Shown piece after piece: positions 23,202 through 26,879 of a DNA stretch of 64,000 nt (position 1 is the stretch's first letter; every line of letters begins with the position of its first letter). The notes below the pieces were generated by a model. The model saw only the letters and a program-made list of their open reading frames with translations. It had not been told where the DNA came from and made no database searches. Origin of the DNA: an uncultured Acidobacteriota bacterium (GTDB lineage Bacteria > Acidobacteriota > Thermoanaerobaculia > Multivoradales > UBA5704). A program made the position numbers and the translations under genes. The DNA lies in NCBI GenBank assembly GCA_963700145.1, contig OY969474.1, positions 384,001 through 448,000 of the forward strand, given 5' to 3'.

Positions 23202-24050
23202 CTAGAGGAAACCGTGGAAGTCGGTGAAGAAGAGATTCACCGCGACGATCGAGAAGAGGATCGCTCCCAGGCCGGTCAAGCTCACCAGCGCCGTCTGCCG
23301 CCCCTGCCAGCGGCGCAGACGTTTCAGTAACAGGGCGGTGGCGTAGAGCACCCAGGTGGCGAGGGTGAAGGCGATCTTGGGGTCGCGCACCCAGCCGGCC
23401 TGGCCCAGCCGCTCGGCCCAGAAGGCGCCCACGACGACGGCGCCGGTCAGGGCCAGGAAGCCGGCCCAGAGGGCGCCGGTCATCATCCGCTCCAGCACCT
23501 CGAGCGGCGGCAGCTTGCCGTAGAAGGTCGAGAAACGCCCGGCCTTGAGCTCGCGGTAGAGCTGCAGGAAGAGGAAGCCGTAGCCGGCGGCCACCACGAA
23601 GGCGGCGTAGCCCAGGAGCGCCAGCGAGACGTGGGTGGCGAAGAAGGCGTCGTGGAAGACCGGGCGCGGCGGCGGGTCGGGGCGGACGAGCACCGAGGCC
23701 AGGAGCTGGAAGAGGAAGGCGAGCGAGACCAGCCAGAAGCCGGTCGAGCGCTCCCGCCCGTGCCACTCGACGAAGAGGTAGACCGCGGCCACCGCGAAGG
23801 CGACGCACGACAGGGCCTGCGAGACGGTGGCGGCGGGGAGCTGCGCGTGGCGGGCGGTGAGCGCCGCGAGGTAGGCGAGGTGGAGGAGGAGCGTGCCGGC
23901 GAGGAGCGGCGTGGCGGCCCGCCGCGCCCGCTCGCGGTCCGGCCGCTCCCCCCGCGGCGGCGCGCCGAAGAAGAGCACGGCGTAGGCGACCGCGGCGGCC
24001 AGGTAGGCCACCGGCAGCAGGACGAGGGCGGCGCCGAGGAAGGTGTCCAC
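23202..24050 (-). CDS. ccsA: Cytochrome c assembly protein (CcsA/HemX-like)
   Basis: Multi-TM; conserved His residues, LPPLEVLE, WVRDPK; typical position upstream of hemA. Confidence 0.8.
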   Translation of the reverse strand: MDTFLGAALVLLPVAYLAAAVAYAVLFFGAPPRGERPDRERARRAATPLLAGTLLLHLAYLAALTARHAQLPAATVSQALSCVAFAVAAVYLFVEWHGRERSTGFWLVSLAFLFQLLASVLVRPDPPPRPVFHDAFFATHVSLALLGYAAFVVAAGYGFLFLQLYRELKAGRFSTFYGKLPPLEVLERMMTGALWAGFLALTGAVVVGAFWAERLGQAGWVRDPKIAFTLATWVLYATALLLKRLRRWQGRQTALVSLTGLGAILFSIVAVNLFFTDFHGFL

Positions 24051-24135
24051 GATGGAGGCCCTATGCTACTGTCCAGCGGCCTTTCCCGCACCCTTCGAGA
24101 GCGCCCGCCGGGACCCGCACCACGGATCGACCGCC

Positions 24136-25470
24136 ATGGCCAACGTCGTGATCGTCGGCATGCAGTGGGGGGACGAGGGGAAGGGCAAGATCGTCGACCT
24201 CCTCTGCCCGGCCTTCGATGCCGTGGTGCGCTACCAGGGGGGGAACAACGCCGGCCACACGGTCAAGTTCCGCGACCGCCACTTCGCCCTCAACCTGGTC
24301 CCCTCCGGCGTCCTCCACCCGGAGATGCTCTGCGTGCTGGGCAACGGCATGGTGATCGCCCCCGACGCCCTGCTCGCCGAGCTGGCGAAGCTCTACGAGG
24401 CCGGCGTGCGCTTCGACGGCCGGCTCTTCATCTCCAACCGCGCCCACGTCCTGCTGCCGCCCCACGCCACGCTCGACCAGGCGCGCGAGGGGGCGCGCGG
24501 GCAGACCAAGATCGGCACCACGGCGCGCGGCATCGGACCGGCCTACGAGAGCAAGGTCTCGCGCTACGGCGTGCGCATGGCCGACCTCTTCGCCCCCGAC
24601 CTCGACGACCGCCTGCGGGCGCTGCTGGCGCGCATCGAGGCGGAGCTGCAGAGCCTGGGGGTGGAGGAGTCGGTGGGCCACCCGTCGGCCCTCGCCGACC
24701 AGTGCCGCGCCTGGGGGGAGAAGCTGCGCCCGGCGCTGCGCGACACCGAGCGGCTGCTCAACGAATGGATCGCGGCGGGGAAGAGCCTGCTCTTCGAGGG
24801 AGCGCAGGGGACGCTCCTCGACGTCGACCACGGCAGCTACCCCTTCGTCACCAGCTCGAACACCACGGCCGGCGGCGCCGCCACCGGCACCGGCGTGCCG
24901 CCGTCCCGCCTCGACGGCGCGATCGGCGTGCTCAAGGCCTACACGACGCGCGTCGGCGCCGGCCCCTTCGTCAGCGAGCTCGAGGGCGAGGCGGGGGAGT
25001 TCCTGCGCCGGCGCGGCAACGAGTTCGGCACCGTCACCGGCCGGCCGCGCCGCTGCGGCTGGCTGGACCTGGTCGCCGCCCGCTACGCCCGGCTGCTCAA
25101 CGGCGTCGACGCCATCGCCCTGACCAAGCTCGACGTGCTCGACGACTTCGACGAGCTGCAGGTCTGCGTCGGCTACCGGGTGAACGGCGAGGTGCTGCGC
25201 GAGCTGCCGGCCTCGCGGCACGCCCTGGAGAGCGCCGCGCCGGTGCTGCGGGCGGTCAAGGGCTGGAAACGGAGCACCGGCGGGGTGCTCGAGGTGGCCG
25301 ACCTGCCGCCGGCGGCGCGCGACTACCTGGCGCTGATCGAGGAGGAGGTGGGGGCGCCGGTGGCCCTCGTCTCGACCGGCCCGCGCCGCGAGGAGACCGC
25401 GCTGACCGGCGATCCCGCCCTCGCGCGCCTCACCTCCGGCCGCCTGGCCGCCGTGCTCGCGCAGCGATAA
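24136..25470 (+). CDS. purA: Adenylosuccinate synthetase
   Basis: QWGDEGKGK, GGNNAGHT, FEGAQG, EFGTVTGRPRRCGW, TKLDVL. Confidence 0.97.
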   Translation: MANVVIVGMQWGDEGKGKIVDLLCPAFDAVVRYQGGNNAGHTVKFRDRHFALNLVPSGVLHPEMLCVLGNGMVIAPDALLAELAKLYEAGVRFDGRLFISNRAHVLLPPHATLDQAREGARGQTKIGTTARGIGPAYESKVSRYGVRMADLFAPDLDDRLRALLARIEAELQSLGVEESVGHPSALADQCRAWGEKLRPALRDTERLLNEWIAAGKSLLFEGAQGTLLDVDHGSYPFVTSSNTTAGGAATGTGVPPSRLDGAIGVLKAYTTRVGAGPFVSELEGEAGEFLRRRGNEFGTVTGRPRRCGWLDLVAARYARLLNGVDAIALTKLDVLDDFDELQVCVGYRVNGEVLRELPASRHALESAAPVLRAVKGWKRSTGGVLEVADLPPAARDYLALIEEEVGAPVALVSTGPRREETALTGDPALARLTSGRLAAVLAQR

Positions 25471-25528
25471 GGCGCGGCTTTCGCGCCGGGCTCCGATCGA
25501 CCGCGAGCGGGCCTTCTATACTCCATCC

Positions 25529-25604
25529 GGGCGGTTAGCTCAGCTGGCAGAGCAACGGGCTTTTAACCCGTGGGTCCAGGGTTCGATCCCCTGACCGCCC
25601 ACCA
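25529..25604 (+). tRNA. tRNA-Lys (anticodon TTT)
   Basis: 76 nt; GGGCGGT/ACCGCCC acceptor stem, ACGGG-CTTTTAA-CCCGT anticodon arm, GTTCGATC T-loop, encoded CCA; TATACT -10 at 25517. Confidence 0.97.
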
Positions 25605-25617
25605 CCGTTCCAGCTTT

Positions 25618-25975
25618 GCGGTCCTCAACCTACGCGCTTTGGCTGCCGAATGGAGCGCCGCGGTCCTCTACTTACGCGGTTCGGCGCTCCATTAGAGGGT
25701 CGCGGTCCTCAACCTACGCGGTTTGCCGGGCCGTTGGGCTGGGTTGCCTGCCGAAATGGCAGATTTTGTCCTCGGCTTACGCGGTTCGTCCGGCAAACCG
25801 ATAGAGTCTGTCCTCGGTTTACGCAGTTCGTCCGCAGACCCAGCCCAATCGGTCCTCAGCTTACGCAGTCGGCCGCGCGCGAAGGGCTCCGCGGTCCCCA
25901 ACTTACGCACTTGGCCCGCCGACCCGGTCCAATCGCGCGCCGCCGGAGCTTCGCCGGTCCTCAACCTACGCAGTC
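25618..25975 (+). repeat. 8-copy interspaced direct-repeat array with 21-bp phasing
   Basis: Core GTCCTC-NNYY-TACGC at 25621, 25663, 25705, 25768, 25810, 25852, 25894 (GTCCCC), 25957; spacings 42,42,63,42,42,42,63. Confidence 0.9.
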
Positions 25976-26006
25976 GGCCGCGGCGCGCTGCTACGCTGCC
26001 GCGCGA

Positions 26007-26879
26007 ATGAGCCAACCGGAGCTGGTGATCATGGCCGCGGGCATGGGCTCGCGCTTCGGCGGGGCCAAGCAGGTTGTGCCCGTCGGTCCCGGCGGCGAGA
26101 TCGTCCTCGACTACTCGGTCTGGGACGCGGCGCGCGCCGGCGTCGAGCGGGTGGTCTTTGTCATCCGGCGCGACATGGAAGAGGACTTCAACACCCGCCA
26201 CGGCAGCCGCTACGCGGGCCGGCTGGACGTCGCCTACGCTTTCCAGGAGCTGGAGGGGCGGCGGAAGCCCTGGGGGACGGCGCACGCGGTCCTTGCGGCG
26301 CGGCCGCAAGTCGGCGGGCCGTTCATGGTCGTCAACGCCGACGACTTCTACGGCGCCGAGGCGTTCGCCCGGATGGCCGAGTTCCTGCGCGGCGAGCCGC
26401 GCGACTACGCGATGGTCGGCTACGAGCTGGGGAAGACGCTCTCGCCGCACGGCCGCGTCGCGCGCGGCGTCTGCGCGGTGGAGCCCGACGGCACCCTCCG
26501 CGCCGTCGTCGAGCACACCGCGATCGAGCCGGCGGACGGCGGCGCGCGCGCGGTCGAGCCGGGCGGCGGCGAGGTCCGCTTCACCGGCCGCGAGCCGGTG
26601 TCGATGAACTTCTGGGGCTTCCTCCCCGACCTCTTCCCCCGCCTCGAGGAGCGCTTCGCCCGCTTCCTCGCCGAGTGCGGCGACGACCCCGCGGCTGAGC
26701 TCTACATCCCGTCGGTCGTCGACGAGCTCATCCACGAGGGACAGGCGCGCGTCCGTGTCCTCCCCACCTCCGGCCGCTGGTTCGGCATGACCTACCCCGA
26801 GGACCGCGACGAGGTGGCCGCGCGCATCCGCGAGCTGGTCGCCCGCGGCGACTACCCCGAGGAGCTCTGGCCGCGGTAG
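26007..26879 (+). CDS. Sugar-phosphate nucleotidyltransferase family protein
   Basis: MAAGMGSRFGGAKQ, KPWGTAHAV, VNADDFYG, VSMNFWGF, WFGMTY; ATG at 26007. Confidence 0.88.
   Translation: MSQPELVIMAAGMGSRFGGAKQVVPVGPGGEIVLDYSVWDAARAGVERVVFVIRRDMEEDFNTRHGSRYAGRLDVAYAFQELEGRRKPWGTAHAVLAARPQVGGPFMVVNADDFYGAEAFARMAEFLRGEPRDYAMVGYELGKTLSPHGRVARGVCAVEPDGTLRAVVEHTAIEPADGGARAVEPGGGEVRFTGREPVSMNFWGFLPDLFPRLEERFARFLAECGDDPAAELYIPSVVDELIHEGQARVRVLPTSGRWFGMTYPEDRDEVAARIRELVARGDYPEELWPR

Follow-up and report, generated by a model that had tools for sequence, protein, structure and literature searches.

A helically phased repeat array behind tRNA-Lys of an uncultured Acidobacteriota bacterium and the linkage of its sister copies to genes encoding XRE-type helix-turn-helix proteins

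Organization of the locus

The window analysed is a 64-kb stretch (positions 384001-448000) of the single 5.46-Mb contig, 71.5% G+C, that represents the genome of an uncultured Acidobacteriota bacterium, hereafter G000. A tRNA-Lys gene lies downstream of purA in the window and is followed by an element with eight copies of a short direct repeat (the core), beyond which lies a gene encoding a nucleotidyltransferase. The features of the locus, in window coordinates, are the following.

24043..25470, + strand, purA (adenylosuccinate synthetase; Pfam E 3e-168), upstream of tRNA-Lys
25529..25604, + strand, tRNA-Lys, anticodon UUU (ARAGORN; Rfam tRNA, 70.1 bits), upstream neighbour of the array
25621..25971, + strand, eight-core element built from 21-nt modules, type I copy A2
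25621, 25663, 25705, 25768, 25810, 25852, 25894 and 25957, + strand, starts of the cores of A2
25621..25635, + strand, core 1, GTCCTCAACCTACGC, typical of all cores, with the central four bases free
25720..25729, + strand, GGTTTGCCGG, complementary to CCGGCAAACC at 25790-25799 (candidate helix Ha)
25734..25744, + strand, TTGGGCTGGGT, reverse complement of the R module ACCCAGCCCAA at 25838-25848 (candidate helix Hb)
25748..25762, + strand, spacer module CTGCCGAAATGGCAG, a small inverted repeat
25921-25935, second R module of A2
25989..25997, + strand, TGCTACGCT, extended -10-like by eye, ahead of the downstream gene
26007..26879, + strand, downstream gene, nucleotidyltransferase (Pfam NTP_transf_3 / NTP_transferase)

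A pattern count confirmed the architecture described in the initial annotation, namely eight cores of the form GTCCTC-NNYY-TACGC at 25621-25971 with spacings of 42, 42, 63, 42, 42, 42 and 63. Seven exact matches and one match with a single mismatch to GTCCTCNNYYTACGC were found on the + strand, the core at 25894 reading GTCCCC, and the array starts just behind the tRNA as annotated, with 16 bases separating the CCA from core 1. No further exact core matches were present in the 64-kb window besides the array. When up to two mismatches to the core were allowed, 19 matches were found in the window versus 7.7 expected, a number reached in none of 100 shuffles.

Pfam searches of the immediate neighbours of A2 identified purA, the nucleotidyltransferase and a lyase. 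The promoter scan called no sigma-70 consensus in the region of TGCTACGCT; the corresponding position ahead of the Ku gene in two sister copies of the element, A1 and A4, is occupied by TGCTACACT. In agreement with the initial annotation, no convincing terminator was found between the tRNA and the array; the only terminator-like site is the weak hairpin at 25748-25762 within the array, followed by a T-run that is not conserved in sister copies. A sequence of ~35 nt following the purA stop codon (window 25469-25505) had dozens of matches at 83-100% identity, in all four congeners, and looks like a separate dispersed REP-like repeat family; a copy was also observed behind tRNA-Lys of the congener G003.

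Copies of the element in the genome and in related genomes

The whole element of ~380 bp, spacers included, is present five times in G000, with fragments near 2.43 Mb. The copies, in genome coordinates, are the following.

32616-32988, - strand, element copy
409621-409971, + strand, copy A2 behind tRNA-Lys
904448-904777, + strand, degenerate copy, type II
1365061-1365412, + strand, element copy
1929150-1929500, - strand, element copy

Two subfamilies were distinguished, type I that includes A2 and type II comprising the 904-kb copy and its relatives. Full copies in G000 contain eight cores in the spacing order 42, 42, 63, (42, 43 or 64), 42, 42, 63. The fourth interval is either 42/43 or 63/64 among copies, indicating that whole units have been gained or lost. 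Of 88 core spacings measured in 13 copies, 70 are exact multiples of 21, a further 17 deviate by one base and the remaining one is 88. Written in rows of 21 nt, the element has cores on every second or third row, and the rows between them belong to a few recurring module types such as CTGCCGAA(A)TGG, and GACCCAGCCCAATCG together with its reverse complement. The spacers are alignable across copies, indicating that the conserved unit is the whole ~380-bp element. The description of the sequence between cores as mostly unique was therefore incorrect, since the spacers are conserved between element copies and are made of recurring 21-nt modules.

A CRISPR array, discounted already in the initial annotation, is rejected on the finding that the apparent spacers are conserved across species as well as across the five copies in G000, and on a core of only 15 nt (about 21 with its tail) where repeats of ~23-50 nt are expected. 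A coding repeat was ruled out by spacings of 41, 43, 62 and 64 and by a 22-nt insertion between copies that breaks any frame; because of these one-base and 22-base length differences there is no single conserved reading frame. No terminal repeats or target duplications indicative of a mobile element were seen in the element alignments.

BLAST searches covered 40 relatives, comprising four congeners (G001-G004) and 36 genomes of other genera. The element was found at orthologous loci in three of the four congeners (G001, G003 and G004) and in none of the 36 genomes of other genera. The search of the genome and its relatives for the core thus identified a multi-copy element with five copies in G000 and a presence in three of four congeners. 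Comparison of the orthologous purA-tRNA-Lys loci revealed the array in G001 and its absence behind tRNA-Lys in G003 and G002. A different neighbour, a convergent gene, is present in G003, and a putative integrase plus IS are the neighbours in G002, with no clean empty site at either locus. The low-G+C DNA behind tRNA-Lys of G002 (locus L214, G002:C28:1-425) appeared by eye to encode an integrase-like N-terminus and an IS3-like transposase start, which suggests that an island integrated at this tRNA-Lys instead of the array.

The pattern scan of public genome contigs returned 52 stretches with true arrays solely in Thermoanaerobaculia MAGs, a narrow distribution that is limited by the search pattern used. 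The corresponding scan of metagenomes returned at least 117 stretches; among the matches listed, the clear relatives were two loci (L096 and L110), with one further weak match (L104, E 7e-5). Sequencing runs containing part of the stretch were mostly soil metagenomes, with no RNA dataset among the 24 runs listed, and A2 and the paralogous arrays were present there (four DNA runs).

Conservation of cores and spacers

The alignment of ten type I copies had a mean pairwise identity of 94.8% at the 11 specified core bases; the spacers, at 73.4%, and the central N4, at 63.3%, were less conserved. Similarly, comparison of the orthologous tRNA-Lys arrays between G000 and G001 gave identities of 99% for the cores, 78% for the spacers and 66% for the N4, while the four-fold sites of the adjacent purA are 91% identical in the same comparison. 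Within the core columns GTCC and TAC are nearly invariant and ten bases apart, a distance of one helical turn that would place them on one face of the DNA in consecutive major grooves. The sequence TGCCGAAATGGC is found unchanged in 10 of 10 type I copies, and some spacer modules are as conserved as the cores. These alignments thus show cores that are held in a fixed register, with intervening DNA that diverges no more slowly than silent sites, a pattern characteristic of binding sites rather than of a folded RNA or of a satellite homogenised by slippage.

Evaluation of an RNA function

Two readings were offered in the initial annotation, a phased protein-binding array and an array of RNA units cotranscribed with the tRNA. 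The former is favoured by the results presented here and the latter did not gain positive support. An array working as RNA would constitute the 3' trailer of tRNA-Lys, or the 3' UTR of HTH or DUF1801 genes at other copies, and would be either a structured RNA or a sponge presenting eight single-stranded motifs to an RNA-binding protein or another RNA. Consistent with transcription from the upstream gene, five of five G000 copies are co-oriented with that gene and start 13-21 bases past its end, with no convincing terminator in between. However, the orphan copy of G003 is divergent from its upstream gene, and sibling arrays of the GGTCCGAAA type are found in both orientations relative to their neighbours.

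The conserved-helix scan yielded many chance-level candidates and two long ones, Ha and Hb. These two complementary pairs (13 and 11 bp) are maintained at ~90% pairing in the ten copies, with 91% of cells paired and two pairs with changes on both sides in helix Ha. Two-sided changes were counted at four pairs in the two helices together, and several U-A to U-G changes agree with the + strand. The shuffles gave 2.1 two-sided pairs and 46 of 500 reached four; ~10% of cells are unpaired and the two helices cross each other. Between 25 and 46 of 500 shuffles attained the level of covariation observed in the candidate helices. Compared to shuffles, the reverse strand gave a better fold (z -3.26) whereas the + strand did not (z -1.45, 8 of 100), and consensus folding of the ten copies produced no clean structure on either strand. 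A known structured RNA is rejected because there was no Rfam match and no significant covariation; the Rfam search over the region up to E = 10 returned nothing but the tRNA and chance-level rows. Furthermore, no partner complementary to the cores was found in the genome, and a register quantised at 21 nt has no obvious rationale for RNA. Taken together, these results make a function as RNA unlikely. The occurrence of GAGGA on the reverse strand of the array prompted the idea of a CsrA sponge. A type III toxin-antitoxin system (ToxI-like) was rejected on the identity of the downstream genes, which encode the nucleotidyltransferase, Ku, a convergent PIN protein and a convergent VWA-like protein.

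Linkage of the arrays to genes encoding XRE-type HTH proteins

The genes surrounding the copies of the element in G000 were identified with Pfam and are in the following order.

A2: tRNA-Lys, array, nucleotidyltransferase
A1 and A4 (the same order twice): XRE-HTH, array, Ku, MerR-TPR, a duplicated block next to two tRNA-Phe genes
Type II copy: XRE-HTH, array, convergent PIN gene
Fifth copy: TonB receptor, DUF1801, array, convergent VWA-like gene

Genes encoding XRE-type HTH proteins (Pfam HTH_3/HTH_31) are located directly upstream of A1, A4 and A3, with none adjoining A2. The initial annotation stated that the array has no partner gene, which holds within the window and fails genome-wide, where the HTH gene directly precedes sister copies and the arrays begin 13-21 bp behind its stop codon. 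The HTH proteins encoded upstream of arrays of the two types are homologues with ~50% identity. The two tRNA-Phe / XRE-HTH / array / Ku / MerR-TPR blocks span G000:C1:31632-33667 and 1364385-1366341 and contain arrays that are 88% identical. The order HTH-array-Ku was also observed in G003, G004 and G001, the array within it being of type II in G001.

The G000 genome encodes six paralogues of the HTH protein and a 21-bp-phased array lies directly behind each of the six, with a core variant of its own: GTCCTC..TACGC, GTCCGC..TACG, GCCTC..TACTGG, GGTCCGAAAA, and GTCCTCGACGTACTGG, the last of which forms contiguous 21-mers behind its HTH paralogue. Phased arrays were likewise found behind 7 of 7 further paralogue loci examined in the congeners (G001 C408, C264 and C502; G004 C3, C23 and C29; G003 C157). 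Outside the genus but within the family, 12 of 27 loci encoding homologues had a lag-20/21 identity of at least 0.54 downstream within 1.1 kb, compared to 2 of 27 in the upstream control, and six more of the 27 scored weaker with the best lag at 20 or 21. The baseline for such a periodic window downstream is 4.6% of 3427 crude G000 gene calls. The lag-21 score alone detects two to three of the six G000 modules, arrays with 42/63 spacing being recognised by core phase. The unit consensus starts with GTCC on the sense strand of the gene in 14 of 27 modules as determined by script, and was seen by eye in others.

The cores at the HTH-array-Ku locus of G003 are GTCCTGGAYCTACTC, and those of the orphan copy at the VWA-like locus of G003 are GTCCTGGATCTAC(G/T)C; thus both the HTH-linked and the orphan array have GTCCTGGAYCTAC(T/G)C where G000 has GTCCTC..TACGC. 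The change from GTCCTC to GTCCTG is common to these two unlinked loci, and the recognition-helix region of the HTH protein has four differences between G003 and G000. The concerted change of the cores could also result from gene conversion between copies. The literature search found no published papers on these arrays in Acidobacteriota and no published link between 20-21-nt arrays and an XRE protein.

Predicted structure of the HTH protein

The HTH protein is ~130 residues in length and belongs to a family with 745 clusters at E <=0.001 in the global library. The predicted model is all-helical with a pLDDT of 71.3. The best Foldseek matches were to proteins of the Cro/C1 type (ClgR, C.BclI, lambda repressor, DdrO and SinR) with a probability of 1.0 and E values of at least 0.016, which are weak. 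The homodimer model scored 0.73 versus 0.00 for the best control, a result that may reflect likeness to solved XRE dimers; among proteins solved as pairs 20 of 30 attained this mark, and among those solved as single chains 1 of 23. The homodimer runs agreed in at least 89% of contacts with a partner pLDDT of at least 72. The symmetric dimer predicted by the model does not obviously fit the asymmetric site.

Comparison with known systems

Plasmid centromeres, such as those of F (sopB-sopC), R1 (parR-parC) and R388 (stbA-stbS), consist of a direct-repeat array beside the gene for the binding protein that coats it. The sopC repeats of 43 bp are close to the 42-bp spacing of the array. In contrast to plasmid centromeres, the arrays described here are chromosomal, with six paralogous modules per genome in addition to orphan arrays, and no gene for an NTPase of the ParA, ParM or TubZ type was detected among the scanned neighbours of the copies. 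The iterons of theta plasmids are direct repeats of ~19-22 bp in helical phase, and iteron systems also have orphan arrays, to which the protein binds at a distance from its gene, P1 incA being a titration locus. With its register of 21 bp the array resembles plasmid iterons, which are helically phased direct repeats of 17-22 bp in origins; no Rep initiator gene was found among the Pfam-scanned neighbours of the five copies and there is no plasmid context. The term iteron/centromere-like used in the initial annotation is therefore apt only for a way of working, there being no Rep, ParA, ParM or TubZ gene beside the copies examined.

The BIME/REP elements of enterobacteria are intergenic mosaics of a few recurring short modules located just behind stop codons, the units of which are palindromic hairpins. 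Unlike these, the cores of the array are without dyad symmetry and are in a strict register of two helical turns. As in the initial annotation, which set aside a palindromic REP, REP, BIME and REPIN are rejected on the grounds that there is no palindromic unit and that folding of the + strand is not above that of shuffles.

Tandem repeat families with a constant unit length of 20-21 nt and variable sequence have been described as enigmatic in other bacteria by Subirana and Messeguer (PMC8161180), with protein polymerisation on DNA or small RNAs proposed as explanations. The array qualifies as a member of these families. The likeness is in being non-coding, in a unit fixed at two helical turns, in several sequence families per genome with a short motif in every unit, and in a function that is unexplained (PMC8161180). 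The array differs in having cores on every second or third module of a ~380-bp mosaic conserved as a unit, and in being linked to a candidate family of reader genes, whereas the available parts of the paper name none (PMC8161180).

A precedent is the C protein of phage P2, a symmetric XRE-type dimer reported to bind cooperatively to direct repeats that are not palindromic and are spaced by two turns (22 bp), the repeat being recognised by one helix (PMC2995052). The likeness lies in the Cro/C1 HTH fold identified here by Pfam and Foldseek and in direct repeats that are non-palindromic and helically phased; as regards the proteins, it is limited to the fold class. P2 C has two half-sites at the promoter it represses (PMC2995052). 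In contrast, the present arrays have eight or more sites over ~0.4 kb that lie behind the gene for the protein or at orphan loci.

Proposed role of the array

The explanation judged slightly more likely than not is that the array is a phased DNA lattice of docking sites for the type I XRE-HTH protein, which would bind it in trans. This reading is favoured because of the two-turn register in 13 copies, the conserved cores among fast-evolving spacers and the cognate HTH family. Each site would be a bipartite non-palindromic core of GTCC, six bases and TAC(G/T)C, and sites 42 or 63 bp apart would be separated by four or six turns such that all lie on one side of the helix. The most likely reader would be the ~130-residue XRE/Cro-C1-type HTH protein, the gene for which is in the tRNA-Phe / HTH / array / Ku blocks at genome positions 32.6 kb and 1365 kb directly upstream of sister arrays. 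On this view, A2 would be an orphan array to which the protein binds in trans. In the manner of P2 C, dimers may bind cooperatively on successive units, touching along one face and coating ~0.4 kb of DNA. Candidate roles for the coated DNA include titration or control of a regulator, a transcriptional roadblock at gene ends, and structuring of the nucleoid. Half of the arrays lie between convergent genes, and simple promoter control of the downstream gene cannot therefore be the general role.

The conserved spacer modules and the two long complementary pairs are left unexplained by one reader protein and argue against the proposal. The conserved modules suggest additional readers, and the lattice could be bound by a reader other than the XRE-HTH protein, either a nucleoid-associated factor requiring two-turn spacing or another small protein. 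Two families encoded beside arrays are compatible with this alternative, an unannotated family of ~130 residues with a basic tail that adjoins arrays at seven loci and Pterin_4a-like proteins that adjoin arrays at six. However, these families flank arrays with unit sequences different from the GTCC type, and the GTCC motif tracks the XRE family across genera with a core variant that differs by paralogue. Binding by another reader is judged rather improbable, even with most arrays having no adjacent member of the HTH family.

Arrays with a 21-nt period throughout the genome

The genome of G000 contains 106 regions with a lag-21 identity of at least 0.58, totalling 35.9 kb, and 16 at lag 20. In windows of 168 nt with an identity of at least 0.54, 22905 were counted at lag 21 versus 297-331 at lags 19, 22 and 23, about seventy-fold fewer. 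The regions with a 21-nt period comprise many unrelated unit families, including palindromic types GGAAGCTTCC and GAGATCTATCTC. Most of the regions with a 20/21-nt period were observed to be 300-500 bp long, and the examples viewed begin right after stop codons.

These regions weigh against the HTH protein as the reader, since most of the more than 100 arrays with a 21-bp period in G000 are not beside a member of this HTH family, indicating a general array-forming process independent of it. A neutral or selfish minisatellite, the register of which is kept by slippage of whole units with neither a reader protein nor a function, would account for a genome full of 20-21-bp arrays with many unrelated unit sequences. 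It would also account for the gain and loss of whole units at the fourth interval (42/43 or 63/64) and for the lack of an array behind tRNA-Lys in G003 and G002, and is in line with the report of constant-length families as widespread and unexplained (PMC8161180). However, slippage homogenises whole units, yet the cores are 95% identical and the intervening bases diverge faster than four-fold sites. Moreover, paralogues older than the species splits have retained the different modules in their eight-core order, and linkage to one protein family in 6 of 6 cases versus a baseline of 4.6% is not expected of neutral DNA. A minisatellite of this kind is accordingly assigned a low probability for the array behind tRNA-Lys.

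With the phased lattice bound by the XRE-HTH protein retained as the preferred reading, a wider system may be envisaged in Thermoanaerobaculia, in which each of several small paralogous XRE proteins has its own two-turn-phased lattice immediately downstream of its gene, together with orphan lattices elsewhere, and forms protein-coated segments of DNA. This extension is tentative, possible with expectation leaning against it. If true, the coated segments would be a bacterial counterpart of satellite chromatin or of multi-site centromere-like bodies, and the protein would be the first named reader for the constant-length 20-21-nt tandem repeats of many bacterial phyla. One array type is now tied by gene linkage to a small DNA-binding family across paralogues, species and genera, and its core shifts in step with the paralogue, which turns a descriptive puzzle into one that can be addressed at the bench with one protein and one 0.4-kb DNA. 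For annotation, the arrays are to be regarded as selected elements and not as junk, CRISPR remnants or tRNA trailers.

Several other features were observed during inspection of the 21-nt arrays. The array at G000:C1:2593299-2593785 consists of ~12 units of GGCCGAATGGGCTGGGTCTGC followed by ~8 units of the reverse complement, the unit being the R spacer module of the element. The unannotated ~130-residue family is helical with a PRRRRKK tail and is encoded directly downstream of arrays at the seven loci mentioned above (among L254-L261, e.g. G000:C1:333598-333984); at three of the seven the opposite side is occupied by Pterin_4a-like (PCD/DCoH) paralogues, which adjoin arrays at six loci in total. 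An array of the GGTCCGAAA type with a 21-bp period (G000:C1:3453418-3453737) is located just upstream of rsmG (gidB) and ~1.4 kb from yidC. The rsmG/yidC neighbourhood is the replication-origin region in many bacteria; the GC skew of G000 revealed no clear origin or terminus. A tract of ~400 nt at G000:C1:2348040-2348440 consists nearly entirely of G, with a little A and C (357 of 550 bases are G), and may represent an artefact of assembly or sequencing or a genuine G-rich region of low complexity. ARAGORN reported several tRNAs of 90-100 nt, for example at G000:C1:2661046-2661140, and at least one of these calls, a tRNA-Ala(ggc) inside the 21-nt array at 2660791-2661277, is probably false.
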